From Marsupella aquatica (Eukaryota; Plantae; Marchantiophyta), in the NCBI GenBank assembly GCA_973895155.1, contig OZ316891.1, positions 20,596,169 through 20,660,168 on the forward strand: a stretch of DNA of 64,000 nt. Direction: 5' to 3'. Positions 13,730 to 35,781 of the stretch are shown here, in pieces (the stretch's first letter is position 1; each line of letters begins with the position of its first letter). The notes beneath the pieces are model-generated. The model saw nothing but the letters and a program-made list of their open reading frames with translations. It made no database searches and was not told the DNA's origin. A program made the translations under genes and the position numbers.

Positions 13730-15100
13730 GAAAGGGCTCAGCTTTTTTACTTTCCAATTTTAAGTGGGACAACGAGCCTGATTACCTAGAGACGAAGACA
13801 GAAAAAAATCTTGCAAAACAGAGATATTGTTGTTCATGTTTGTCTCTACCCCTCGGACAGGAACGATGACTGGAGGTGCGTAAGCCGAAGCCGAGGGCGT
13901 CGGGTTCGAATTCTTTTTCACCCTCCCTACTATTTTGTCTTTAATGAGAGTCACTGTTAGTCTTTATTCAATGTCAGTTTTATTGACCTTTGCTCCCATC
14001 CCTTTATTTTGGCCCATCTCTTACTTTTTGGTTTTGTTCTATTGAGAGTTGTCCATCTTTACTTTTTAGTTTTGTTCTATTGAGAGTTAGAGTCTAGAGG
14101 CTGCACTCTCTTTATTAGAACTATTTATTTTTTCTGCAAAGAATGGGGGTTTTACAAGAATTTGGGACACAAAAAATATATTTTTTCACCCGATGCAAAA
14201 CTGAGGTCCATTACAAACACCGAGGCTAAAATGCCTGAGCCAAGCATGTGTCATGTGTGGAGAAAAGAAACACAAGACCCTGAATAAGGGTTGGTCCATC
14301 CCCCTTAAGAGGGCATATTCACATAAGCAAAAAAATGGATACACAAAGGGCCCACTAATGTTAGGTATTTACTCTTAGGTCTAGAGTTGCTATGTTACCT
14401 CTATGAGTGTAACCACAATCAGGTGTTTAGTTTAAGATTAGATGTGCAACTAATACATTCCTTAAGAGAAGTTAGTTAATGAGTGGAATTTAGGCAAGTA
14501 ACGTTGTTCAACTAGGAAATGACTTTGATAAGTAATGAGTTTGTCAAATTGTACCTCCATGTTCATGTAAAGTGAAGTCTAGCCTGGTCTGACATTTGAA
14601 TGGCTACCATTGCATCTCAGACATAGAGATTTTTACAGGCAGGCCTATGAGCGATCTAGTATCTCTGGTTTTGATTATAAAGATTAATCCAACATTCAGT
14701 GTCCACACTTTGTGCTCCCAAAAGTTTCTGAGCAGCTACCTCCAACAATCACTCACCCAACTTTGACAATGAGTATCAGGTTGATTGTTTGAGTTCTAGG
14801 AAAACTGCTTGGCAAGATCTTTATGATGAGTCTAGTGTAGTCAAATTTCACTGAGAATTGACAGACCTACAAATCTTCTAAAGAATGATGTCTCTAGTTT
14901 TCTTGTGACATTTCACTAGTCGGAGTCATATGTAATATGTGAGTGCAAAAGAGGGTTTTGCAGATATCCATCCGGGTTGCTAAAGTATGACAGACTATCC
15001 CAACATTTTCACAATCATGGAGGTCTATCTAGGCATCAATTTTCTAAAAATGCACAACTTAGTGAAAAAATTCAAAAGTTTATCAGGTAAAATGTGAACT

Positions 15101-15176
15101 AGCTAGCTTTGGTTAGCTGGCCAGGGGATGAACCTAAACCAGAGAAATCCCAGGTTCAATCCCCCCTCCACGCGCA
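15101..15176 (+). mobile_element. Possible tRNA-derived SINE head, interrupted downstream by the copia insertion
   Basis: A-box-like tagctttggttagc (15104) and B-box-like ggttcaatccc (15153-15163) at tRNA-like spacing. No convincing cloverleaf. Confidence 0.35.
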
Positions 15177-15282
15177 AGGGGTGTGGAGGGTATGTGTGTG
15201 TATGTGTGAGTGCGGTAAACTGGTGGGAATCCTGGTTTCTCCTTAGCCCCAGGCTAGTTTGCTTTAGGGCTGACCCTGGTTC

Positions 15283-15320
15283 TGTTGAGCATAGACGACA
15301 TTCGTAACGGCAAGCCCATG
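15283..15320 (-). repeat. Inverted copy of the last 38 bp (U5) of the copia LTR, forming a terminal inverted repeat
   Basis: tgttgagcatagacgacattcgtaacggcaagcccatg is the reverse complement of 30807-30844 with 1 mismatch. Confidence 0.95.
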
Positions 15321-15329
15321 CTATCAGAG

Positions 15330-15341
15330 TGGTATCAGAGC
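15330..15341 (+). promoter_or_regulatory. Ectopic tRNA-iMet primer binding site (copy 1)
   Basis: (ag)TGGTATCAGAGC directly abutting the break in gag. Confidence 0.9.
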
Positions 15342-15775
15342 TGCTTGATGATGTGCGGCTTGAGATATAGCATCACTGCGTTGACAACAATCACCTGCTC
15401 CTGTCTCCACTGTCTCACAGAAATCTCCTCCTCTCCATCATACTGCTCTCGCGATGAAAGCAGATGAGCTAAGCCCATGGCCCAAAGGACACCCTTCACT
15501 TGCTTCTCCCACAGCAAGTAATCAGTACGGCCATCGTACTTCTCCACCTCAAAGTTCACTCGGACTCCAAATCTAGCCATCTCCCTCTTCTTCCCCACTA
15601 CCAACAACTCTGGTAGTAGTACAGCTTCCTCCACTGCACGCCGCACCGGTGATCTTACCGGTGTCACTAGTTCCTCCTCAAACGGTAGCAGCTCTTCCTC
15701 AGACTCTCTGTCTGACCGTCGCGATCCTGAAGCTCCATCGACGCCAATTCTTCCAGTATCCTCCGAGTCACTCAT
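15342..15775 (-). pseudogene. Copia gag, N-terminal piece
   Basis: MSDSED...NFEVEKYDGRTDYLLWEKQVKGVL...MLYLKPHIIKQL, a typical copia gag start, cut off at the PBS copy. Confidence 0.85.
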
Positions 15776-17526
15776 ATGAAACAATCACGAAAAAATGTTT
15801 TTTTTCAAAACTTCTCATAAAACTCAAAAATCAACACCGCCGCGTACCCCACGAAGCTAGGAGTCCAATACTGAAAGCCGAAATCAAAATCAAAATTTGA
15901 CGGAAAAGTTATTCAAATTTTGGTCGGGGTGGGTAAAACCTTGGGAAACTCCCCCGTTTTGACCACCTCGGAGAATAACCAAAATACCCAATACAACCCG
16001 TCGTCGGAATCGCAATGCGATTGGTGCGCCGCGTTGCCAACTTCAATGGCTACGTCCTTGTCGAAAAAGAACCAAAAAAGTTATCGTTCGGCGGACAGAA
16101 TCTTTGTTGGACGGCCGAAAAACAGCTCTTTGTTTTTTGGGAATATTCACGCATAGTCTGACAGGTCTCATAGGGGGCTGTTCCCCCTGTCGGAGCGGTT
16201 AAAACAGAGGGCGGCAGGTCCTGGCACCAAGTAAAACAAGAGGAAGCGAAGAGGAGGAAAAAGAGCCAAAAACAGGCCCTAAAGGGATGCAAAGCGCTTT
16301 AAATCCAAAAAATACGAGTATAAAAAGGCGGGCCAGGGGGTGTACAGGGCGTCGAGGTGGGGGCCGGGAGTAAAATACGTCTGCGTACGCAGCCAGAGAC
16401 GGGGTCCCGGGAGCGTACCGTCACCATGCGCTGTGGAGGGGCACCGACAGAAGGCAGGCGCGAGGTGGGAGAACCGGGGGCACAAGGCGAAGGCAGGGCC
16501 GGCCGACGGAGGGAGTCCCCCGGCTTATGCAGGCAGGTGGAGCGCGAGGCGGTCGGCTGGCAGCCGGGCGCAAAACGGTGTTAAGGGGGGGGGGCGAGGG
16601 CATGGCCTGGGTGACCGACGAGCGGGGAGGGTATGGTCGGGGCGCGCGCCGGTCGGCACTGCGGACCCCGCCGTTATAAATGGGGTGCGGGGAGGGGGGG
16701 AGGGATACAAACACAAGGGGGGTGCGGGGGTGTGTATACACACGAATATAACCCTTTAAACCCCCCTATAAAGGCAAAAAAACTCCCCCGGGATAAGTGA
16801 AAGAAAAACTCACCTAAAAAGCCGTTGTTTGATCCAAAGAAAGTGAACGCCGCCGATGGTAAATATTTCCGAATTTCACCGGCACAATCTGCAGCTCCAG
16901 CAGAGTAAACAATTTCCGTCGCGTTGCCTTCACTCCGCGTCAAGTGCCAATCCCGGGTGTCACACCATTCTAGGTAGTGTTAGAGTATATCGTACTATCT
17001 AGATCCATATGTTTGGTATATGTGCTATATGAGCCGATAAGGTTCTGTCAGGTTTGTGTGAGAGGGTACTTCTCACTTGTGAGGCATTGAAAGGTCATCT
17101 TTCAATGTTGAGCCTAGGAGAGAGATGAGCTTGAGTGTGGCTATGGTGGCTGGGCGCTTCGCTTGTGTAACGTGGATTCCTTGAGTAGTGCAAGCTAGGT
17201 GCATTGGCTTGACATACGTGTGTGATCGGATCGGTGCGGGATCAATGGGGTATTGTTGACCGGGATCGTTGTGCCGATTGTATTGAGATTACATTGAAAG
17301 ATCAGGAGCTTCAAACTCTGTTGTGTGGACAAAAGCTCAGTCTGAGTTTGTTGTTGACGATTTGCGGTAGATCAAATCGATTGGAGCTGTTGTTTTGATC
17401 TGTGGTACCTCGGATCGTGGAGTGGACCGCTGGTATTTTGATTTGCTCTAATCGGTGTTGAGAAGTTTGTGCCTGATCTGTGCTGCCATTCAACGGACAG
17501 TATGCTGCTGTTCGCGTTTTTGTGAA

Positions 17527-17692
17527 GTAGATCGGGCCTGCATCATCATCGTATGTAGATCTGTTGGGCCGATTTGCTGTTTTCGCAAGGGAAACAGCCA
17601 CAGATGTTGGTAGATCAGGCCTGCATCATCATCGTATGCAAATCTGTTGGGCCGATCTGCTATTTTTGCAAGGAAAATAGCTGCGGATGTTG
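17527..17692. repeat. Tandem duplication, 2 x 83 bp, in the gypsy leader
   Basis: gtagatc.ggcctgcatcatcatcgtatg...gatgttg at 17527 and 17610. Confidence 0.9.
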
Positions 17693-18188
17693 TTGAATCG
17701 CACAACGACACCGCCTGTGTAGCGATTTCCAGAACTTGCACGCCAACCTCTGCGTTTTGTTGAAGAAATAGAACTTTGAATGTTGCTATTTTGGTAGCGG
17801 ATGCGGGCTGCTGCTGATCAGAGCGCGGAGGCACTATCGCCTGCGTGTTTGTGAAGGGGAACGACTCGGGATTGTTGCCCATTTTGCGAGGGCTGGATTG
17901 CGGATTCGCTATGACAGGACAGTGCGTCGACGCGCTGCATTTCTGTGAAGGAAACTCGAGGCCGAAGTGTGGACGTTGTTGAATCTGGAAGTTGGATCCG
18001 GCGTAGCGGGCGTGAAGGGCTCACTTTGTGGCTCATCTCGGCATTTAGAGGCTTCGAGGCAACTCGGGACGAGGGGCGTGAGGGCGAAGCAGGAGCGGGC
18101 GGGCCAGCAAGCCAACTTGCTAGTACGTGAGGAGAATTGCAAGTGCTGTCATTTTGGAGTGGCAGATTTGGTGCATAATGACAAGTGA

Positions 18189-18256
18189 GAGGTCACCCAT
18201 CCCAAAGCTATTCCTCCCCTCATGCGCTTAACTAGCAAGTTCTTATGTGGTGCATT
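18189..18256 (-). promoter_or_regulatory. 5S rRNA-derived internal Pol III promoter core (box A to box C), not a full 5S gene
   Basis: + strand gaggtcacccatcc-N22-cgcttaact-N4-agttct-N5-ggtgcatt matches the reverse complement of plant 5S rRNA (GAGGTCACCCATCC-N22-CGCTTAACT-N4-AGTTCT-N10-GGTGCATT). The 5S ends are absent. Confidence 0.85.
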
Positions 18257-21200
18257 GTACATGCTTCCTTCCACACTTGGTGTCCAAGGAATGAGGCCCT
18301 AGGGGTTTTATGCACTTTTGAATTCATCTAGATACTCTATTTTAGCTAGTTTGCGATGGATTCTTGAATATTTGACGCAGGATTCTTGAGGCCTATTATG
18401 AAGGCCCTATATTGAACTATATGCACATTATTTTCATGTATTTCTGATTGATTGGTGTGGAGAGTTGTGGTAAATCCTCTTCTTGTTGTTGGATCCTCTC
18501 CACACATGCTTCCTGTTTATGCGCCATGTTGGTTTGGCGTGGACGCTTGATTCTATAGGAGTGATTCGGGTTTGCAACCGGACATTCTAGTTGTGCTACG
18601 TATTTCTCTCCTGGTGATGTTGGAGTGATGCCCAACACACCATGGTGAGTGCTTGTGTTGTTGACAAGGACAGATTGCCCTTAGGGTTAGCATATAGATT
18701 AGGTTAGATTGGTCACCACGGATTCTTCTGGTGCTGCTGGGTTACCCGATGGACGACGGACCGGTTTCACTTGGAGTGGGGCGCAGTTTTGGCCAACAAC
18801 ATTGGTAGCAGTCAGCAGCACAACTTCAAACAGTGATTCTGACGAGGACTCTGTGAGCAGTTCTCCTTGTCATCAGGTGATTGCACCTTTGTTGTGGGAT
18901 ATGGACAAGATGTACGGGGCTACAAAGGGCCCATGACGATACTCTGGTGCAGTTGGCACAATTGATCTGGATGACTTCATCCAGGAGTTTGATACGTGGT
19001 GCGATATGCAGACATTGCGTAACGCCATGTTGTTTACCCCTTTCATGGCATGGAAAGGATTATTCCAGCATTTGGAGGGGCCACCCATGGATGACTACCA
19101 TGAGTTTTGGAAGGCTCATTTGGTTGAGATTGAGGCATGGAGGCAGCATTGGTCGCCTAATTATGTGTCCATCACCTATTGCACTAGTGCGGCTGCCCAA
19201 CCCATTGCCACAGCTGTTGCTTCTTCTAGCAGCACTAGCCAGAGTGGCACACCATCCACCAGTAGCACTCCAGCAGCATCCATCGCTACTCCTACCGGTG
19301 TGATTGTGACAGGAATTGGAGTTGCGCCAACATTTAACCCTATGGTGGAATTCTTTGAGGTACTGAAGCAGACCTATCAGGGTGTGAGAACTGATAAGTT
19401 GAAGGGTCTCCAGGAGTTCCAGCGTAAGACTGGAGAGAGTCTACGTGAGGCATACACTCGTATGCGCAGATTGATCACTATCACCAAGGGAGTGACAGAG
19501 GCTCAGGCAATCCAGTTTTGGTATGCGATTCTGGACAAAGAATTGCGACGCAGAGTGAGAGATGTCACTCTACTTAGGGATGCAGATCCCACATTAGCAG
19601 TTGTTTTTACCCTTTCTCAGCGCATTCAGCTCAATATGGTGAATGAGAAGGTGGTGATTTCTGGATTTGCCAAGGAAGCACCAAAGGCTGCATCTACATC
19701 CACACCATAACCTACTGCACGGAAGAGCCAGAGGGAGAAGCCTGCTGGACGAGAGTCTACCAGCCAGAGACCTGTGCCCTCTTATGCTGGACAGCAGTCA
19801 AGATGTTGGACCTGTGGTGGGGATCATGCACAGAGATATTGTCCAGATCATAGAGGATCAGGGGGAGCATCAGCGCCTGATCAATGACAGTGTGATCATT
19901 GTGGAGCTCCTGGACACACCAAGGATAGGTGTTTCTCACTCCACCCTGAGTTACGGAGGGGAGGATCCCGTACACATGATCAGGGAAGAGGAGGAGGAGG
20001 TAGAGGTGGTGGACGTGGTCGTGGTCGTGGCATGCCACATGCAGGGAGACAGGAAGGTGACGCTGCCCCTACTATAACCATAAATCCAAATGATGCTAAG
20101 ATTGCTCAATTGGAGCAACAACTAGCTGCCATGGCTAGTTCCCAGGTGAGACCTACTTCTAGTGATGGGGCATCTACATCCTATGGACCTTCCACATCCC
20201 ATGGTCCTTCCACATCTTATGGAGCTGATGGAGACCTTGCCACCATGGGATTCATGTGTGGCACTGCACATATTGATGCATCAGCAGCGTTGACACGTGG
20301 GGCAGCCAAAGCTCTTGAGCCCCGAGGAGCAGTAGTGGAGTTAGATCCATAGAGGGAGGATGCACGTTGGCAGACAAAGCTTCCTCAGTCTTTTACATTG
20401 TCAGAGATAGTTCAGACTGTCTCTATGAACCCGGTTCGGACAAACCCTAATGTGGGTAAGTCGGCAGAATCAGGTAGTGATGCAGTAGGGATGACAGGTA
20501 CCCTGCTGGGGGCGGCTACTGCCATGGTACGCACCCCATTATTTTCAGCGACAGACATGCTGAACTTGGGAGTTGGTCTTGCAAAAGTGTTCAGATTGGC
20601 AGCTATACTCTGTGAGGACACTCCAGTGGTTGCTTCCCATGCAGAAGCAGCTTGCAGTGTTGAAGCAGTGAAATCCATGCCACCTACTACTACTAGTGAG
20701 ACATGGCATGTAGCAACAGCAAGGTTGGTGGATTTACCAGCACGCCCTGCATTTGAGAGGACTAGGTTTAAACCTAGTGTTGTGTCATTGGATAATCGAA
20801 GTGGTATCTTCCGATTAGTTGGGCCTTCTTGGGCAGTATACCAGCCAGAGAGAGTGTTACTGGATACTAGTGCTCAGCCCTTGATGTTGGGTAAGTCTGC
20901 CATACGTGGGTTGGGATTGCATCCAGAGGATTTGGAGGATTGTCCCTTTCCCATTCAGACTTCATTGGGGGGACCTACACCTACACAGCACATTACCAGG
21001 AGACCTCTTGATTTGAGGATTCAGGAAGGTCATACCACAGATAACTCACAAATACAGGCGCGAGCTATTCTGACTAAGGCAGAGTCATATGATGTGTTGG
21101 TGGGATGTACAGTGCTCTACCCCATGGGATTTATTCTTGATTTTTTGGAGGAATCAGTGTCATATAGACCTGATTGGCAGTCAGGAGATGCTTGATTGAG

Positions 21201-21567
21201 CAAATTGCCAATGAGATTTAGTGGACCTATGGGAGGCCCTAAATCCACACCATTGTCTTTGGCAGCATTCAGTGGGCTAATTGTTGGACCTGATGATTTG
21301 ATTGAGGGTAATGTGCATGCAGCAGATGTTCCACCATTGGAGGAGACTCATGAGGAGCACATCATGCAGGGATTCCCTGTTGGCAGTGTTGTGCCACCAG
21401 TGTGGGGCATTGCATAGACCTTGCCACAGGAAGCAGCACGATTGGTACATGATGCATGGCGTCATGCTTTTACACCATAGTCAGGAGCAGAGCAGTCTCT
21501 TGCAGATGGACCGGTGACTCTTTCACCATTGGATACCACTCCTATTGCTTGGCAGTATCCACCGGAG

Positions 21568-22490
21568 GGTATTTGTTTGTTGGATCGTTTTGGTGGGATT
21601 AGCACTAGATTGGCTGTTGTTCTTTAGGCAGGAATTCTTGTGCGTTGTTATTTGTATGTGGAGACAGATGAGACAACACGGAGGATCTCATTGCAACATG
21701 TGGCTATGTTGGTGGATAGATATCCACAGTTGCTGCTAGTGGATGCTGTTCGTGGTTATCAGCATGCACTACCTACTGATATTTCATTACTAGGGGCGGA
21801 TCATCTGCATCGTGTTGGCCCCATTGATTTGGTGATTGCTGGTTGGCCATGTTAGGGCCAATCTAGAGCTGGCATTGGGCATGGACTTCATGATCCACGC
21901 TCAACACTATTTTGGGAGATGTTACGGGTGCTGCGTCATCTCCAGCTACATCAGACACAATCTCCAACATACATTTTGGAGAATGTGCCATTGTTAGGTG
22001 ATGATCGCAGTCGGATTGTTGCCAGTGTTCACCAGGTGAGGTCTTGGATTGGACCTGCTGTGTTATTGGATGCTACACATGTGGGTTCTCGTGCACATCG
22101 TCCACGCTTGTGGTGGACCAATTTGATCCCATGTGAGGTGCTGAAGCGCGCATTTGACAGCATTCCACGCTCACCAGCCTTAGTGGTGGATGATATTTTG
22201 GATCCAGAGCATCGTGCACAGGGTGTGACCCAACCTGATAGACCTCCATTGGCAATGGTCAATCCACTCTTGTAAGCCATTCTGCTTCTTATGCATTCAG
22301 AGCAGGTGGCCCTGGACTTGTGTGGGACACAGCTCTCCAGCAGTTAGTGGAACCTACTGCTGATGAGAGAGAGCGTGCTATGGGATTTTTGACTAGCACC
22401 ACTGCAGTTGCCTCTGTGTTAGAGGGTTTGCGACGCTAGGTTCTTGGTCAAGCAATGGATCTGAATTGTTTAACTTGGATTATCAGCTTG
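21568..22490 (+). pseudogene. C5 cytosine DNA methyltransferase domain within pol (between AP and RT)
   Basis: Motif I LLDRFGGIST (~21580), motif IV GPIDLVIAGWPC*G (PC 21847-21852), motif VI ILENV (ENV 21979), motif VIII RAHRPRLWWTN (22090), motifs IX/X ERERAMGF...RR*VLGQAMD (~22365-22460), in canonical order. Confidence 0.92.
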
Positions 22491-25400
22491 GGAGTAGCTG
22501 AACAGTTGCGGATGCGCTCTGCTGAAATTACTGATTGTCCCTTGGTGAGCTTGCGGTCCACTGAGACAGTATTAACCACAGCTGGGGGCGAGCAGACAGT
22601 CCATGGACCTATGGCAGGATTGGCCAAGGCTGGACAGATTGTTGAGCAGGAAGGGACTGCTCAATCTACTACTAAATAGCAATCATCGACTATCTTTTCT
22701 ACCCTACAAAGATATATTAGGGATTTGGTGGAGAGTTGGGAACCACAGCTTGGCCCTAAGTTGACAGGGGAGGAGAGACGTCGCATGCATCGATTCCTGA
22801 AGAGTTACTGGAATTGTTTTGCATTTAGCATGAAGGATTTGGGGACATTAAAGGGTCCTGGTATTCAGATTGAATTGGCTAGTAATGCGCCAATCTTTCG
22901 TAGGCCATACCGTTACAGTGACATGGAGAGAGCTTTGATTCAAAGCAGAACTCAAGATTTGTTGGAGGCTGGATTGGTGGAGATTTCATATGGGGAGTAT
23001 GCATCTGCCACAGTGATGCCAGCCAAGAAGGATGTGCATGGCAATTACACAGATAGGCGCATGTGTGGTGATTACATACCCATTAATCGCCAGACAAATC
23101 TGATAGATATGCCATGCCCACACTTGAGGAGATATTTGATGCTGTGGGGCATGCAAAGGTTTTCAGTTCATTGGATCTGAGGGCAGGGTATCATCAGCTT
23201 CCAATTAGGCATGCTGACAGGTCCAAGACAACATTCTAGGGGATTAATTCTTATGGCAAAGATCGTTTGTATCAGTGGTTATTCTTACCATTTGGGTTGA
23301 AGAATGCACCAGCTGAGTTCCAGAGAGTCATGGATCGAATCCTTGCAGGTTTGGATTTTGTCAGATGTTATATTGATGATATTTTGGTCTATTCTTCTAC
23401 TATGGAAGAACATCAGCAGCACTTGCAAATTGTGTTGGAGAGATTGAGAGCACATGGGTTGAAGCTCCATCCTAGCAAGTGTAAGTTCTTCCAAGACCAG
23501 ATTGAGTATTTGGGCCACACCATATACCCAGGGGGATTGGGTGTACAGCAGACTAAAGTGGAGGCCATTACACAGATTCCTTGTCCTACTGATGTGAGTT
23601 TGTGCATTCTTGGGATTTGCGAGCTACTACAGGAGGTATGTTAAAGGATTTAGCCAGCTTGCTAAACCTTTGACCATACTCACTAAGTTGGATCATGAAT
23701 GGATTTGGGGTGATGACCAGGAGCATGCCTTTCAGGAGTTGAAGCAAAGGTTGGCATCATCCCCTGTTTTGATAAGACCCATTTCAGGCAGACCATTTTA
23801 GCTACACACTGATTGGAGTGGAGTAGGACTTGGAGCAGTGCTGACTCAAAAGGATGATGAGGGGAATGAGTTTGTTGTGGCTTATGCCAGTAGATCAAAC
23901 AATTCAGCAGAGGCTAAGTATAGCTCTTATGAGGGAGAGTGTTTGGCAGCAGTGTGGGCTGTTGCACATTTTTGTTGCTACTTGTTTGATAACCCTTTCA
24001 CCTTGATCACTGATCATCAGCCTCTTAAGTGGTTAATGGAGTCTGACAAGCTTACAGGGAAGCTTGCACGATGGGCATTGTTGTTACAGGAGTATGATTT
24101 CCAGGTGGTGCATAGGCCTGGAAAAGTGAACTTGGATGCAAATGGATTAAGCCGGAATCCATGTACCAGTCAGCAGGATGAGACTGGAGCCAGATGGCAT
24201 GATGAGTCAGATAAGGAGATGGTGCCAGGATGGCATGCATCTGCCTTTCTTTGTTGGGTGCCAACATATAGTGGATCTGTTGACTCTACCTCATTGGATG
24301 GAGTGGATGAGGAGTCTTTAGATGTGGATGTTGGTGAGGTAACTTTTGGATAGCAAGATATTCACAATGATGTGAGAGTGTTGGAATATCTGCGCAGTGG
24401 TTCTATTGTTGGCAGTGTTGATGCCAAAGAACGTGACAGGGTTCTACATAGAGCCAAGAGGTTTCGATGGGAGGGAAACCATCTTTTGAGAGTACTGCAT
24501 GATGGTAGGGTGTTGGTGGTACCAAAACCATCACAACGAGTACATTTGGTACGACATGCACACGAGGAGTTGGGGCACTTTGGTGTGAAGCGCACTTATA
24601 GCTTGTTGCAGACACAGTATTGGTGGCGTCGTATGCACACTCATGTCCAGCAGTTGATAGCTAAGTGTGTGGTATGTGATAGAGTGAGAGCATCATTTAA
24701 TGCTCCCACTCCCCAGTTGCACCCGTTGCCGATCATGGGTTTGGGATATCGTTGGAGTTTGGATTTTTCTGGTCCATTACCTCTTACCCAACGTCATAAT
24801 CGGTATGTTTTGGTCATGGTGGAGCACTTCTCCAAGTGGATTGAGCTAGTGGCATTGCCAGATAAAGCCAGTGGAGGAGTTGCTGCTACATTTTTGGATC
24901 GTGTACTCAGTCATTTTGGAGCACCAGCTGAGGTGTTGACTGATCAGGGAACTGAGTTCCGTGGAGAGTTTGAGAGTTTGTATGAGTCACAAGCTCTGAT
25001 TGATCATCGTACTACCTCTTGTGATCATCCTAAGGCAAATGGATTAGCCGAGAGAGTTGTGCAAACTGTAAAGAGAGGATTGCGTAAGTATGGCTTGCAG
25101 GTTGGTCATCTGGGAGATTGGGATCTCCAGCTACCTTGGTTAGCTATGGGCTACCGTTTTAGTCGGCAAGCATAACTTGCATCATTTTCACCTTACTTTT
25201 TGCTCTATGGTAGAGAGCCAGATTTGCTAGCAGCTATTCGTCATGATGCTGCACCAGTTGTGAACTTGGATGATCCTGATGTTTGGGTCAAGGTGTGTTC
25301 AGAGAGAGCACGGGTATTTCAGAGAGTGATGCCCATGGCTTTTGACAACGTTGCCATTGCCCAACATCGTGATACTTTGAGGTATGCCACTATTCGTGGA

Positions 25401-25661
25401 GGAGGTTATCGTGCAAGCATTCGATGATTTCATCCTAGTGATTATGTTTATTTGCAGCAGACAACACCCACAACACTTGATGTGACCACAGGCCGGACAA
25501 TCTTACGTGTGCGTGAAGTGTTGCCTTCTGGTGTCCTGATGTTGGAGGGACGCGATGGTATGGTTTGGAAGGATCAAGTGCGCAACTGTGCACCATGTCA
25601 CCTTCCCAACATTGATGGTATAGTAGATCCAAGCTTGGCACATGTTCGTGCTGGCTTGAAA

Positions 25662-25799
25662 TGTATGTTGTGTGGATCTGCTCAGGGAGCAGCTACTATG
25701 TTGATTTGTGATAAGTATTCTAGAGAATGGCACATGTCATGTTTGACACCACCATTGCAGGTGATTCCTAGTGGATCATGGTTGTGTCCTCAGTGTCGG
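25662..25799 (+). other. PHD finger at the integrase C-terminus
   Basis: CMLC-x11-CDK(Y)-x4-HMSC-LTPPLQVIPSGSWLCPQC, a C4HC3 pattern with one Cys apparently mutated (TGT>TAT). Confidence 0.9.
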
Positions 25800-26635
25800 T
25801 GAAGCCGACTAGTTATCATTTGTGTTCTCTTGGCAGATATGGATTGCAGGTAGATGATCGATGAGGCTCACTTGCACCCGGCCTCCTGATCTTCACACCT
25901 AAAAAGGTGTATATCAACCTTGTAGAACTCATGGCTAGCTAGAGTTAGGGGACCTTACTCCCAGCTAGAGGGGCGATTGTGGGTTTTGGACATGTGTGGA
26001 CATGAGTTCCACTTGTATTCCATTCTCTTGTGTTTGTGATATGGCAGTGTGACTATGTTTGGATGTATGTGACAAGCGATGTATGTTGTGTAGCGATGTG
26101 TATGCGCACGACATGGGCTCAAAACAACCGTCTCGCCACGATCAAACCGTTGAGCCGTAGCACTTCGCGTTTCTTCCACCGAGTAGGACGTCACGAAGAG
26201 AAACCCAGTTCAGATGAGAACAAGCTCTATAGCTTGTGAAAAAACCTGAACGCCTCCTTCACTCGTCACGACGCACTCGATAACAACTCGACAACAATTC
26301 AGCTACCGAAATGACCAGCTCGCTTCAAACTTCAACTTAAGCTATAATATGCAATCCCTCCCGCACCGCACGGCTCACACCGTTGAAAAAAACAATCTCT
26401 CGTCTCTCCCCCCAAAAGCCGTCGAACACGAATAAAACCTGAACGACGCAAACTTCAATTCCTCCGCACCACGGATACCAATCAGCGAGTTCTAACCACC
26501 GTTAGAAAGCCCTCTCACTAACTTATTCGCTCAGCCACACATATTTGAGTTTCATGCGACAAAACTCGAAATATACCATCGACAACGAACGCTAGAAAAA
26601 CCTGTCACAAAAAAACCTCGTCACCTCCCAGGCAT

Positions 26636-26647
26636 GCTCTGATACCA
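26636..26647 (-). promoter_or_regulatory. tRNA-iMet PBS (copy 2, the native PBS followed by the copia leader)
   Basis: Minus strand tCAAG-TGGTATCAGAGC-atgcc, followed by leader sequence running toward gag-N. Confidence 0.9.
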
Positions 26648-27305
26648 CTTGATACTACGTTGAGAGCATAACCTTGACATCACAATATGTCATCATCATC
26701 GAGTAAATCTACCTCATGCGAGCTCGATGCCGCGTTAGCAGAGGCAGTAGGGACCTTTACTCGACAATCCCTTTTCATGTGGCCAGGCTTGCCACAATTC
26801 CAACATGCAAGAGGCTTCCTCTCTTGCAATTTCCCTCTGGATTTAGATCTCCCCTATTATGTAGATCTAAACCTGTTCTGCCCATTTGTGCGCTGCGCTG
26901 CTCTTCCCCTATTCACATTGAGCGTAGTGCCAGAAGAAGATGCTGTCTGTGATTGACCCAGCTTTTTCTGAGCATCATCAGACAGTAATGAGCTCATCAC
27001 CTCATTATACGAAATGGACTTCAGATCTCTATACAAGAACACCTATTTCAAGCCCTAATATGATGGCAGTAAGGAGCTTAGCAAAAGCAAGGCCTTATCC
27101 TCATCTTCAACTCATTTTCCCAGGTTTGACAGATCCACCGGTAGACTGTCAAATTCATCCAGGTGATCCTGCATCTTGCTCCCTTCCTTGAGCCTGAGAC
27201 TCATCAAGAGAGACTTCTTGTATAGCCGGTCTAACGCATCTTCCCGGTAGCACTTCTCTCTTAGAGCCTTGAATAGTGACGCGCAATCTACATAATCATC
27301 TAGCT
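26648..27305 (-). pseudogene. Copia gag, C-terminal piece
   Basis: QLDDYVDCASLFKALREK...LRLKEGSKMQDHLDEF...EDEDKALLLLSSL...GRSKSRGK...CWNCGKPGHMKRDC...YALNVVSS. Confidence 0.9.
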
Positions 27306-27317
27306 GCTCTGATACCA
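27306..27317 (-). promoter_or_regulatory. Ectopic tRNA-iMet PBS (copy 3)
   Basis: Minus strand tCAAG-TGGTATCAGAGC-agctagat, between + strand protease and - strand gag-C. Confidence 0.9.
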
Positions 27318-27320
27318 CTT

Positions 27321-30293
27321 GACTGGATTCTAGATAGTGCATGTACTTTTCACATTTGCTCTAGGAGAGATTGTTTCAGTTCTTACACGGTTTCCAACGG
27401 GTCAGTGTTGATGGGAAATGGAATCCCATGTCAAGTTGTTGGACTTGGATCTGTAAGATTTCAGATGTTTGATGGTGCTATGAGAACGTTGAGGAATGTG
27501 AGACATATTCCCAGCATGATGAAAAATCTTATTTCATTTGGAGTTTTAGAAGCAAATGGCCATCAGTGGAGTTCTGCTAACGGTGTCCTTCAGGTTTCAA
27601 TTGGTACTAAAGTTGTATTGAAGGAAAAAAGACATTACAATCTATACGTTTTGGAGGGCAGTGTAGTCTGTGATGAAGTCAATATAACCTTATCTCATGA
27701 AGAGACGGCCCGGCTGTGGAGCCCCTACTCCCTCACATTCTGGACGGTTATACTATGTTACGTTCATAGACAATTACTCAAGATATGTGTGGATATACTT
27801 TCTACACAATAAGTCTGATGTTTTTGCCACTTTTAAGAAGTGGAAAGCCAAGTAGAGAATCAGACTGGTAATAAGGTGAGATATCTTCGATCGGATAACG
27901 GCGGTGAATACATTTCCAGGGAATTTGGAACGTATTGTAAAGAGTAGGGGATTACCCGCCATCTCACAACAAGTTATACTCCTCAGCAGAATGGTGTTTC
28001 TGAGAGACTCAACTAAACACTATTGGACCGCTCGAGGAGTATGTTGAGTCAATCATGCTTACCACATGAGTTTTGGGCTGAAGCTATCAACACTATAGCT
28101 TATTTAGTAAATTTTTCTCCATCCAGTTCTATTGGATTCAAGACGCCATTTGAAATGAGGTACGGGCATCCAGCAGATTACTCACATCTGAGGATTTTTG
28201 GATGTGATGCTTATGTGCTTACACCTTTCCAGCTTCGATCCAAGCTGGAGTCCAAATCGAAGAAGTACATTTTCCTTGGCTATCAGAAAGGTGTGAAGGG
28301 TTATAGGTTATGGGATCCAGTAACCTGTAAACTAATTGTCAATAGAGATGTGTCCTTCAAAGAATCCAGATCATCAAAGGAGGGGGAAATTTCTCAGGAC
28401 TCCCATACTGACAAGGGGAAATCTCCCATCTCGAACCGGGTTGAGGGGGAGATTAGTCATGATGCTGTTCATGACAGGAGAGATGGAGAAGCTCCGGGCT
28501 TGGAGCTGGTTCCTATGATGGAACAAGAGGAGCAGATTGTTGCTGGGGTACCTCAAATTCAACCAGCAGCAGCAGATCAGCCTAAGTCATCTACTAGAAA
28601 AACTTCCAGTTGTTCTACTAGAGCTCCTACCAGGTATGGTCAATGGGCAGACTCATCTAAGCTAGATGATATTGACATTGCATCTGATGATGATGACATG
28701 ACTTTGATCTTGGAAGAAGGAGAGTCTTCTTCGTATAGTGAGGCTTGTGCTTCAGAACATAAGGATGAGTGGAATGCAGCAATGCAGAGGGAATTGCAAT
28801 CTTTGAGTAACAACAAGACATGAGAGCTGGTGGAGCTTCCAAGAGGTCAGCAAGTGGTGGACAGCAAATGAATTTACAAGTTGAAGGACAGTCCTTCAGA
28901 GGGTGGAGATAAGATCTACAAGACAAGGCTTGTTGCCAAGGGATTCACTCAGGAGAAAGGAGTGGATTACAATGAGGTCTTTTCACCGGTGGCTAAGTAT
29001 TCCACAATTCAGATCTTGTGTCAACTTGTTGTGTTTTTTGGTCTGGTGATGGATCAGATGGATGTTGTTACTGCTTTTCTCTATGGCAACTTGGAAGAGT
29101 TGATCTTCATGAGACAGCCACTAGGCTTTATGAAGAAGGGCCAAGAGAACTTAGTTTGCAGATTGCTTAAGTCCTTGTATGGATTGAAGCAGTCTCCCAG
29201 ATAGTGGAACAAGCGGTTTGATGATTTCATGCTTGCTCAAGGTTTTACAAGGATGGTGTATGATCCTTGTGTGTATACGAAATCAGTCAAGAATGATGTG
29301 TTTGGTTTCATCATTCTGGTTATTTATGTGGATGACATGCTGATTGTGGCTAAAGATCAATGTGAGGTTGACAGTCTCAAGGCGAACTTGAGTGTTGAAT
29401 TCAGGATGAAGGATCTTGGTAAGGCCAAGAGGATCTTAGGGATGGAGATTTTTAGGAACTCTGAGACTGGACAGTTGTGCTTGAGTCAAGGCCAGTATGC
29501 GAGGAAAGTACTTGCACGATTCAACATGGAGAACTGTAAGCCAGTGAGTATTCCTTTAGCATCACATTTCAAGTTATCATCGGCTTTCTCTCCTACGGAT
29601 GCTGTGGAGAAAGGTCTGATGGCTAAGATTCCTTATGAGAAGGCAGTAGACAGTCTGATGTATTTGATGACTTGTACTAGGCCTGACTTGGCCCTAGCGA
29701 TGGGCAAGGTTAGCAGATTCATGTCAAATCCAGGGAAGGTACATTGGGAAGTTGTGAAATGGATTCTCAGGTATCTCAAGGGTACACAGGACTATGGATT
29801 ACTATTTGATAACATATCAGATAGAACGTTAGTTGGCTATGTAGATTCTGACTATGAGGGCTATCTGGATAGAAGGAGGTCTACAACTGGGTTTGTATAC
29901 ACTCTTGGAGGAGGATGTATCAGTTAGAAATCTACCTTGCAGAAGTGCATATCTCAGTCTACTACAGAAGCAGAGTATGTTGCAGCAGCAGAAGCAGCAA
30001 AGGAAGCAATTTGGTTGGACAAGTTGATCGTGGAGATGGGTTTAGAGCATGGCAAAATGACTCTAAAGTGTGATAGTCAGAGTGCTCTTCACTTGGCTGC
30101 TAACCAGGTGATGGATAGTAGGGTGAAGCACATTGATATCAGGTACCATTTTATCAGGCAAACAGTGTCTGATAAAACTTTTGAGCTAGTCAAGATTGAT
30201 GGAAAGCTCAATCCCGTTGATGCCTTTACCAAAGTGATTCCTTTGGAGAGTTTCTCAAGACACCGTGCTACTTTGCAGGTTTTGCAGTTGTAG
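27321..30293 (+). pseudogene. Copia pol (PR-INT-RT-RNase H), disrupted
   Basis: [77 protein letters not shown] (~29325), STTEAEY, KHIDIRYHF. The integrase HHCC region appears deleted near 27720. Confidence 0.95.
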
Positions 30294-30500
30294 TGCAAGT
30301 AGAGTTATTTAGCAATGTGTGACTATTTGTATATGGATTACTCATTCCTGTTAGGTTACGGCTTAGTTCTAGTTAACCCTTAGTTAACCCTTGTGGTTTT
30401 TAGGGGGAGACCTGGTTTGGTGATTGTCTAGAACTTCCCGCTGAGGATTCCATATGGTAGCATTTAGTCTAGTCCCCAAGACAAGAGTCAAGGGGGAGTT

Positions 30501-30844
30501 TGTTAGATATTGCTCTAGTCTTGTGACTCATGAGCTAACCACAGTTAGTATAACTTGGGTTAAGACTTAGCTAATGTTAGCGGTTATGCTGGTGTGCATA
30601 TAGCCAGGGCTGATGCCAGACCCTGGTGAAACTTAGGCTCATTGTTACGGAGCTAGTTGAGAGATAGGGAGAGCTTGTGCTGTGGATATTTGGTATGGCC
30701 GGTTGACCTAGAGTGCAGTAAAGTTCTTGTGTGTTCCCGTGGACATAGTCTCATGTGGAGGTGAACCACGTATCTCTCTATGTCGACTATTGTGCGTTTG
30801 ATGGTTCATGAGCTTGCCGTTACGAATGTCGTCTATGCTCAACA
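30501..30844 (+). repeat. Copia 3' LTR (344 bp)
   Basis: TGTTAG...CAACA directly after the PPT, with copia U5-type motif cccgtggacatag...gaaccacgta. Confidence 0.9.
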
Positions 30845-30875
30845 GGTTCACCCCTCTTCCCTCCTGGTCTGGTCC

Positions 30876-30994
30876 TGTAGGATCCCTGGGTATTTTCTCC
30901 CCTTGTGGGCTACCCCAAAGTTTAAAGTCTATTTTGTAGGATCCTGGTATTTTCTCCCCTTGTGGGCTACCCCAAAGTTTAAAGTCTATTTTGT
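30876..30994. repeat. Tandem duplication, ~58 bp x 2
   Basis: tgtaggatcc..ggtattttctccccttgtgggctaccccaaagtttaaagtctatttt repeated. Confidence 0.9.
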
Positions 30995-33808: not shown

Positions 33809-34590
33809 ACTTGTAATGTCTTTCTTAAAGATAATTGGGAAGAGTATGAGGGAGAGAGCTTGAGATATCATGGTTCGACAAACGTTGCCTTTCCAAAGGG
33901 AGAAAATGAATCCCATCTGTCGAATGTGTTAGCCTAAGCACTGGGTCATTTTTAGCGAAAATGAAAGAAAAGGTTGGATTTTCATTTCTGCCAGGTTACT
34001 TCACCCTTCATGTACAACAGTTACTCCGTAGCCAAAATGATGGCTGTGTAAAGTCAGTAGGATTTGTATACTAGATTCATACACATGAGAAATGTTATGT
34101 ATTGGAAATTACCATGCAATCATTCAAACTTATCCGTGGACTGAACTGTATCAAGAGATTACTGGTCAGGGATCCTGATGTCAATGGACCTCTTTCTTTT
34201 CGTCTCTTTATCCATATTTGATTCCTCTAATCATTTGCTTGTTATAGAATGAGGGTGTGACTACTTTCAGCGTTGTGTAAGGTGGCAGTTGGCGATCTCC
34301 GTGCAGTTCAAGATTCTCTCTACTTGAACTCTGTCTGTCTGAAGAACTGGCGCTTGAATAGAAAGCAGGTTGGATGTAGTGTACATGATTCAGGACTTTA
34401 AGCAAACTCTCTTGACTAGGACAGTGATTAGAGTGTTTGGAATTTACCTGAGACTTAGAGTTCTATACATCCGGGAAGATTCCTAAAAGTTTGCCAAGGA
34501 AATCTGGGCACCTGTGCACCTGGACAGATCATAATTATGAGCCCACATTCACCAATAACATAGCTCGTCAACTTCCCACTCGGTCCAACT

Positions 34591-34920
34591 GCCTGGTCAT
34601 CTTACTTATGTATGACAGCACGTTTGGTCAACAACAATTTAAGATCAACAATTTGTGCCTGGTCATCTTACTTATGTATGACAGCACGTTTGCTCAACAA
34701 CAATTTAAGATCAACAATTTGTGCCTGGTCATCTTACTTATGTATGACAGCACGTTTGCTCAACAACAATTTAAGATCAACAATTTGTGCCTGGTCATCT
34801 TACTTATGTATGACAGCACTTTTGCTCAACAACAATCTAAGATCAACAATTTGTGCCTGATCATCTTACTTATGTATCACAGCACTTTTGCTCAACAACA
34901 ATTTAAGATCAACAATTTTG
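34591..34920. repeat. Minisatellite, 5 x 66 bp
   Basis: Unit gcctggtcatcttacttatgtatgacagcacgtttgctcaacaacaatttaagatcaacaatttgt, near-identical copies. Confidence 0.97.
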
Positions 34921-35781
34921 TGCAAGGCACAAGCATTGTGTATGTTTAAATCACAATTGTCCCTATAAAGAGCTACAAGTTACCTATAGCTTTCAGTATA
35001 AGTACACAGGTTCAGGAATGGGCTTGAGATTCACAAACTCTGGTGATGGTGAGTGCTTCACGTTTTATTTTCAAGTGCAAGTGCTCCACCTTTTATGTGA
35101 GAGTACCCCACAAAATTATCAGACTACCCCACAAAATGTTACACAGGTTCAGGAATGGGGTTGAGCTTCACAAAATGTGGTGACTGCCTCACCTTTCATT
35201 TGCAAGTGCTCTACCTTTTATGCGAGACTACCCCACCAAATGGGGTTACTGTTTCACCTTTTATTTGCAAGTGCTTCACCTTCAATGTGAGACTACCCCG
35301 TTCACCACACAGGAATGAGTAGTGAAGTAGTAAATGGGGAGTTTATATAGGCAGGTGTGTGTTAAAGATTTAACAGATCACGTTAATGTGTACATTTTTG
35401 TGCACAGCACTAGCATAGGGTATGCGACGATTTTGTGCCTTGGCATTGGATCTGCTTAACACTTACTATCTACATATTCATAGCTCAACATCACTCAATG
35501 CCAATAACATTCTGCAGGTCTATGATAATATTGTGCAAGGCATTGGGCTTGTTGACCATAAATATTAAGCTTTGATTTGCCATATTCATCTTGTGCTTGA
35601 ATAATTGAGACAGCGTCTTCGAGCTTTGTCGAGGCAATCAATGTAAGTGCTACAATGCTCTAAAGTGGGGACCGGTCTGGCGGATTGTTGCCGCCTTCCA
35701 AAATTGGATTTTCTTGAGGGTGAGCATTTTCCATCTTCGGTACACGTTATGAACTGTTAATTTCCATCTTGAGAGCACGTT

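Follow-up and report, generated by a model that had tools for sequence, protein, structure and literature searches.

The liverwort Marsupella aquatica carries, within a 64,000-nucleotide stretch of contig OZ316891.1 (GenBank assembly GCA_973895155.1; positions 20,596,169 to 20,660,168 of the forward strand), a copy of a Ty1/copia-type retrotransposon whose leader and gag gene lie in inverted, reordered pieces. We call the whole stretch the window and number it from its first letter. The copy spans positions 15283–30844, is enclosed by identical 5-bp repeats (GGTTC), and is one degenerate, dead Ty1/copia insertion rather than a new kind of element. The Pfam domain Retrotran_gag_2 is present, followed by Pol_BBD, SH3_retrovirus and RVT_2 in order on the plus strand, and an rve domain is carried by a relative protein, P0001. 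A primer-binding site (PBS, here in three copies), a polypurine tract and the 5-bp target duplication are further Ty1/copia characters; the hallmark pair of direct flanking long terminal repeats (LTRs) is missing. Because there is one LTR here while canonical relatives have LTR-AG-PBS, we regard the copy as a broken member of its family. Its parts are listed below, each with the evidence that places it; U5 is the unique 5′ region, at the end of the LTR.

15278–15282, no strand: left target-site duplication GGTTC, the same as 30845–30849, adjoining the terminal TG of the element
15283–15320, minus: left terminus TGTTGAGC..., an inverted copy of the LTR's final 38 nt (the U5 end); blastn-short, LTR against window
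15319–15329, plus: partial PBS-like copy TGCTATCAGAG, just before PBS copy 1
15330–15341, plus: PBS copy 1, of the initiator methionine tRNA (tRNA-iMet) type, oriented like pol; exact 12-mer match
15342–15776, minus: N-terminal gag piece (gag-N), from an ATG at 15776–15774 to ...KPHIIKQ(L); open reading frame, 79% identity to residues 3–81 of relative protein P0002
15777–16954, minus: distal leader; contig depth profile
26116–26635, minus: proximal leader, continuous with PBS copy 2; contigs run from leader through PBS into a canonical LTR
26636–26649, minus: PBS copy 2 and AG spacer; leader side normal, other side joined to the end of gag-C instead of to U5
26650–27305, minus: C-terminal gag piece (gag-C), starting QLDDY... 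and holding the CCHC knuckle, the family's in-frame stop of gag and ~10 initial codons of pol; Retrotran_gag_2 and translation
27306–27319, minus: PBS copy 3 and AG spacer, between the gag-C start and the protease start; exact 12-mer match
27320–30293, plus: pol, with protease-like barrel, integrase, reverse transcriptase and RNase H; Pol_BBD, SH3_retrovirus and RVT_2
30490–30498, plus: putative polypurine tract AAGGGGGAG, assigned from its location 2 nt ahead of the LTR's TG
30501–30844, plus: the single LTR (3′ LTR), TG...CA; end set by the contig joint 26651→30842, start inferred
30845–30849, no strand: right target-site duplication GGTTC; sequence reading

The minus strand thus reads PBS, gag-C, PBS, leader, gag-N, inverted PBS and U5 tail, with pol and the sole LTR on the plus strand. 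This is the order and orientation that a preliminary description had given, and six-frame reading and Pfam bear it out. That description had missed four things: the target duplication, the inverted U5 terminus without a 5′ LTR, the partial fourth PBS and a 9.2-kb foreign element in the leader. The copy is heavily decayed, pol being one frame with 10 in-frame stops and gag-C holding 5 premature ones.

Two U5 termini in one target duplication

The only other match to the LTR in the 64 kb is the piece at the left end of the element (15283–15320; 38 nt, 97.4% identity, inverted, E = 1.3 × 10⁻¹³, blastn-short), which a gapped alignment lengthens to ~44 nt. It begins precisely at the terminal base of the LTR, directly after GGTTC, so that GGTTC adjoins TGTTGAGC... 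at the left end and ...GCTCAACA at the right. Both termini are therefore U5 ends and the 5′ LTR is absent; neither a repeat finder nor self-BLAST found an LTR pair within the window. A joint linking 15319 to 30789 on opposite strands is present in three contigs. The simplest account is that the molecule already bore two U5 ends when it integrated; had a normal element been inserted, whichever way round, one terminus would be wrong. We also considered two adjacent elements in opposite orientation and rejected them: the same 5-mer would be needed at two independent sites (~1/1000), and one terminus would still be wrong.

Primer-binding sites at every new joint

The PBS 12-mer TGGTATCAGAGC, which we take to be complementary to tRNA-iMet, occurs at exactly three sites in the window: 15330–15341 (plus), 26636–26647 (minus) and 27306–27317 (minus). 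None of 100 shuffles reached three matches (mean 0.38 per shuffle), and ARAGORN found no tRNA genes in the window. Read in its own orientation, each copy follows an AG, so the three AG-TGGTATCAGAGC copies first described stand in position, strand and spacer. The adjoining partial copy TGCTATCAGAG agrees with the PBS at 10 of its first 11 positions (12-nt scan match at 15319–15330, with 2 substitutions). It can also be read as further inverted U5, as the same letters align to the window's own LTR.

When the window is set against the ends of canonical contigs, every novel joint shows 2–4 nt of microhomology that fits both partners. On the spacer side, the end of gag-C shares three bases with CAAG-PBS, and the start of the protease shares two with AG-PBS; on the leader side, four bases are shared where the end of a PBS meets the start of gag-C and three where the end of gag-N meets the inverted PBS. 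The stopping points recur. Both plus-strand GCTCTGATACCA-CT-TG copies end at one identical base, 2 nt into U5, and two joints lie where the 12-nt PBS ends, on its final base or bases. All joints retain AG and PBS, and at none is the processed CA end of the LTR joined to a target. Every new joint falls at a strong-stop landmark of reverse transcription.

Canonical copies and the two internal breaks

Canonical copies of the family were read from Logan contigs, with runs X1, X2, X5 and X6 used for joints and X1, X4, X2 and X5 for loose ends. The 15 runs listed are all represented by Logan contigs and comprise no RNA run; rows of small share, including air metagenomes, were left out. Run X1 is probably from the same species as the window, because its flank contig shows 0 differences; X2 and X5 come from a relative, their flank contigs departing from the window sequence at ~1/10 positions. 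The family is extremely abundant: summed word depth over the copia parts reaches 1 × 10⁵ to 1 × 10⁶, against ~50–100 in the right flank. It is normally unscrambled, with LTR-CA-AG-PBS-leader and unbroken gag, and contigs of other copies confirm that CA-AG-PBS is the normal layout where LTR meets PBS. The joint linking 26651 to 30842 on opposite strands appears in two contigs of X1 and five of X2 (none in X5 or X6), and loose ends at 26651 that run into the LTR number 11, 14, 35 and 10 in X1, X4, X2 and X5, respectively (70 over the 4 runs).

At the gag break, the proposal that gag-N (...HIIKQL) and gag-C (QLDDY) rejoin is upheld by canonical contigs and by P0002, a natural gag protein of 295 amino acids, both of which are continuous across it; residues 3–81 of P0002 align with gag-N and residues 81–143 with gag-C (86% identity). 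The canonical joint 27301→15339, in which seven letters fit both sides, is present in two contigs of X1, two of X2 and one of X6 (none of X5), and loose ends at 27308 occur in two contigs each of X1 and X4. The break lost no sequence. The heptamer AGCAGCT flanks it on both sides, and three nucleotides per side may belong to the PBS; the unambiguous overlap is 1 nt. A 5-bp duplication, GCAGC, had been suggested here and is not demonstrable, as the true overlap may lie anywhere from 1 to 7 nt.

The break between gag-C and protease is of another kind. Between the two ends, canonical contigs hold ~13 nt that the window copy has lost, and none of three exact 10–13-nt motifs of that stretch matches anywhere in the window. 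Contigs with loose ends at 26649 or 26654 number 10 in X1, 18 in X2 and four in X5, and one contig, of X5, links 26654 with 27320 across opposite strands. The protein searches gave one and two relatives, none of which crosses the gag/protease boundary, so the evidence for the missing ~13 nt is that of the contig ends. The description of both breaks as near lossless accordingly holds for gag and fails at this boundary. The direct rejoining VVSSDWILDS is wrong, and the second quasi-palindrome (TCA-ag-TGA) falls with it, because it was built on that reconstruction.

The gag of this copy ends at an in-frame stop (...DDIL*) near 26680 on the minus strand, ~10 codons before the break, which is also where the natural relatives P0002 and P0003 terminate; it would therefore appear that pol of the family continues from gag in an unchanged frame beyond a stop codon.

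Among contigs, which do not allow copies to be counted, no second scrambled copy turned up; the joints and loose ends shown at the break sites are all canonical. Among the matches listed, to which >13,000 further pieces would have to be added, no contig bridges 27306–27320 or 26636–26655 with 31 nt on each side. A 23-mer across the junction had 0 matches in metagenome contigs of the Joint Genome Institute (JGI), a weak negative, as the copia family itself is absent from that collection. The 72 metagenome loci with a canonical LTR-end/PBS pattern belong to other copia families: four of them match the window, all in pol, at 64–67% identity. Across the 72 loci, 75 of the 80 PBS 12-mers are preceded by CAAG.

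Origin of the scrambled order

The arrangement is, as first stated, hard to explain as a simple deletion or inversion. Of the three ideas put forward with that statement (tRNA-tagged template switching, autointegration and a family propagating in scrambled form), the anatomy favours the first, because the donors stop either at the end of the 12-nt PBS or just past the AG spacer, microhomology is found at every joint and the whole lies in a single target duplication. We lean towards an account in which the leader and gag were scrambled before integration by serial jumps of reverse transcriptase between templates, at strong stops on the tRNA and PBS, and the product was then integrated once through two U5 ends.

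The events may have run as follows. Two minus strands would be primed by tRNA, one of them long, growing normally from the 3′ end through pol and halting at the protease start, and the other comprising only ~38–44 nt of U5. Their growing 3′ ends would jump at the ends of their templates, these being either the end of the copyable 12 nt of tRNA/PBS or the RNA 5′ end past the AG spacer; an RNA 5′ end just beyond the spacer is what would be left of the template after the first strong stop. The landing sites, which shared a few bases, would have been the quasi-palindrome AGCAGCT in gag and the gag/pol boundary, with each jump through the primer region leaving an AG-PBS tag. The two strands would then copy each other to their 5′ ends, giving a duplex bounded on both sides by U5 termini, which integrase would insert once, creating the GGTTC duplication. 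Decay by point mutation and the nested insertion would have come later, leaving the copy inert.

A more specific version, which we offer tentatively and hold to be rather doubtful, sees in the copy a fossil of a cDNA made of two minus strands. Both packaged RNAs would have been primed; the nascent strands would have copied the spacer and exactly 12 nt of tRNA, primed on opposite strands of the gag quasi-palindrome and completed each other; and integrase would have accepted the two U5 ends.

Several points weigh against template jumps before integration. At least five non-homologous jumps are required within one particle. The gag heptamer is used twice, as acceptor and as donor, which resembles one reciprocal event at the DNA level and is poorly explained by serial jumps, and DNA polymerase switching templates on an integrated copy could produce the same internal order. 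A 5-bp match between the flanks has a chance of ~1/1000, no empty site or orthologous locus was seen, and the runs used were contigs, which bear on neither read support for the joints nor the copy number of the scrambled form. The account also leans on general background, namely that copying of the initiator tRNA halts after 12 nt at a modified base.

The rival that survives best, although we judge it unlikely, is that a two-LTR copy of normal structure integrated first and underwent rearrangement in the chromosome afterwards, through break repair or replicative switching (microhomology-mediated break-induced replication, MMBIR, or a process of the polymerase-theta type), with a nearby 14–17-nt AG-PBS stretch copied as filler into the joints and the 5′ LTR destroyed. 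In plants, repair of the MMBIR or theta type typically leaves short templated fillers, which may face either way. Both sides of each break are retained in the locus, every joint has its short microhomology, and the reciprocal use of the gag heptamer fits a single break in DNA. The microhomology and the short templated insertions are predicted equally by repair and by reverse transcription. Rearrangement in the chromosome demands a breakpoint exactly at the boundary between element and target duplication, as well as an inverted LTR piece that begins exactly at the last base of the LTR, and it leaves unexplained why donors twice halted at one identical base past the PBS, and likewise where the 12-nt PBS ends.

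An assembly artefact, in which repeat copies were chimeric or mis-joined, is very improbable. The family is extremely abundant and the joints are not confirmable by contigs, both of which would suit a mis-join; against it stand the precision of the joints, their microhomology and PBS tags, and their position within one matching target duplication. The two flanks are single-copy and equal in depth (an X1 flank contig shows 0 differences), and a mis-join would not yield an inverted 38-nt LTR end adjoining GGTTC.

Autointegration is still harder to credit. In such a 'suicide' reaction the element's own integrase would join the cDNA ends into gag and invert a segment, which would suit the inverted internal segment and the up to 7 nt duplicated at the gag break, and copia particles are known to form inversion circles (PMC7197481, in the part of that report available to us). 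The joints contradict it, all of them keeping AG and PBS and none having a processed LTR CA end. The products of the reaction are circular, whereas the window copy was inserted in linear form and has a target duplication to itself, and a target duplication of fixed length is not seen, the gag overlap being 1–7 nt and the other break having lost ~13 nt.

Least probable of all is a scrambled subfamily that still propagates through its internal PBS copies: the mutations of this copy have spared all three PBS, which would suit the idea without directly supporting it, but with no 5′ LTR it lacks a promoter or an R repeat with which to replicate normally, pol has its 10 stops and gag-C its 5, and the contigs shown at the break sites have canonical order only.

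Comparison with known systems

A close parallel is with the complex LTR retrotransposons of Triticeae, in which template switching fuses elements before insertion (Sabot and Schulman 2007, PMC1950507). As far as the accessible part of that report goes, the likeness lies in an abnormal template-switch cDNA inserted as one unit, and the whole abnormal structure in our window is likewise found inside one target duplication (15278–15282 and 30845–30849). In the Triticeae elements two parents are fused and share an LTR, whereas the window copy holds one genome's worth of sequence and a single LTR. It differs further, on the same partial view of the source, in its inverted and permuted 5′ third, its PBS-tagged joints, its U5 at both ends and its lack of a 5′ LTR.

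Autointegration produces deletion and inversion circles in Ty1 and in the Arabidopsis copia element SISYPHUS (PMC7197481). From the portion of that paper at hand, these circles resemble the window copy in being copia-type cDNA with inverted internal segments, formed inside the particle; in the circles, LTR ends are joined to internal targets and the products are dead ends, whereas the copy here has AG-PBS joints and is linear and integrated. Integrated HIV-1 (human immunodeficiency virus 1) proviruses include inversions (2 of 78) and asymmetric LTRs, ascribed to reverse-transcriptase switches between the two packaged RNAs, including switches at the PBS (PMC9278108, as excerpted). Like the window copy, they are integrated and defective, and their defects are ascribed in the excerpts to switching by reverse transcriptase. 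HIV-1 belongs to a different virus family, and a term search of PMC9278108 returned neither a U5-U5 terminus nor repeated PBS tags.

In an unrelated copia family, three metagenome loci (L021:1020–1400, L027 and L060:6940–7320) hold three direct AG-PBS copies within 250 nt, two of them a tandem duplication of the PBS with ~56 nt and the third placed after a short U5-like tail. They resemble the window copy in having extra AG-PBS near the true PBS, one of them after a short U5 tail, and differ from it in that the PBS copies are direct and common to three contigs, with coding sequence neither inverted nor broken. An inverted PBS pair in two other loci (L002 and L025) was set aside, as it appears to represent two separate, unrelated elements. 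In the full-text literature searched, from which subscription journals are mostly absent, we found no description of an integrated copia element that terminates in U5 on both sides and whose inverted, permuted joints carry PBS tags.

Nested element, leader and flanks

The copia leader is interrupted by a second element of ~9.2 kb, here called element G, placed by Pfam and by a joint in contigs that skips it:

16958–26113, plus: nested element G, with Ty3/gypsy-type pol, a fragment of a C5 DNA methylase and a PHD finger

The joint linking the distal leader across it (16954→26116) was seen in X2 (3 + 2 contigs). Pfam reports RVT_1, RT_RNaseH, Integrase_H2C2, rve, DNA_methylase and PHD in element G; the C5 DNA-methylase fragment lies at 21856–22275 (PF00145, E = 7 × 10⁻⁵, barely above the cutoff) and the C-terminal PHD finger at 25428–25802. 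No LTR pair of element G is present in the window. By summed depth the element is high-copy, and contigs from its other copies join the right end (~25977–26113) to the left end (16958–17290), and left to right. Gypsy elements of Klebsormidium that bear Dnmt3 have a DIRS-like repeat layout, 'A-coding-B-A-B' (PMC5890265), and the end-joining contigs of element G match that layout as far as the consulted part of the report describes it.

Within the distal leader, positions 16201–16767 are GC-rich and low-copy, with long open frames rich in Arg and Gly on both strands, and contig depth there is ~100-fold below that of the neighbouring leader; this stretch may be another inserted fragment. The left flank (15100–15277) comprises a tRNA-like stretch (GGTTCAATCC...) and a GT-rich run, and may be a repeat resembling a short interspersed element that received the copia insertion. 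To the right, ~40 nt beyond the target duplication, two exact 49-nt direct repeats lie 57 nt apart (30889–30994), and a tandem array of about six copies of a 66-nt unit (95–99% identity) occupies 34590–34985.

Implications

The locus reveals no new mobile-element strategy: it is a single dead copy, which we read as the fossil of an accident of reverse transcription. If that reading is correct, a cDNA that ends in U5 on both sides can be inserted by a plant copia integrase, and errors of reverse transcription leave readable marks in the genome in the form of primer tags and stops at template ends. Such copies would be missed by finders of LTR pairs and could not be dated by LTR divergence; the PBS motif alone can therefore mislead annotation. 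Should the narrower version, with two minus strands, prove true, repeat-rich plant genomes would contain U5-U5 elements with PBS-tagged joints as a recurrent, unannotated class of insertion, and these would offer a natural readout of the sites at which plant copia reverse transcriptase stops on its primer.

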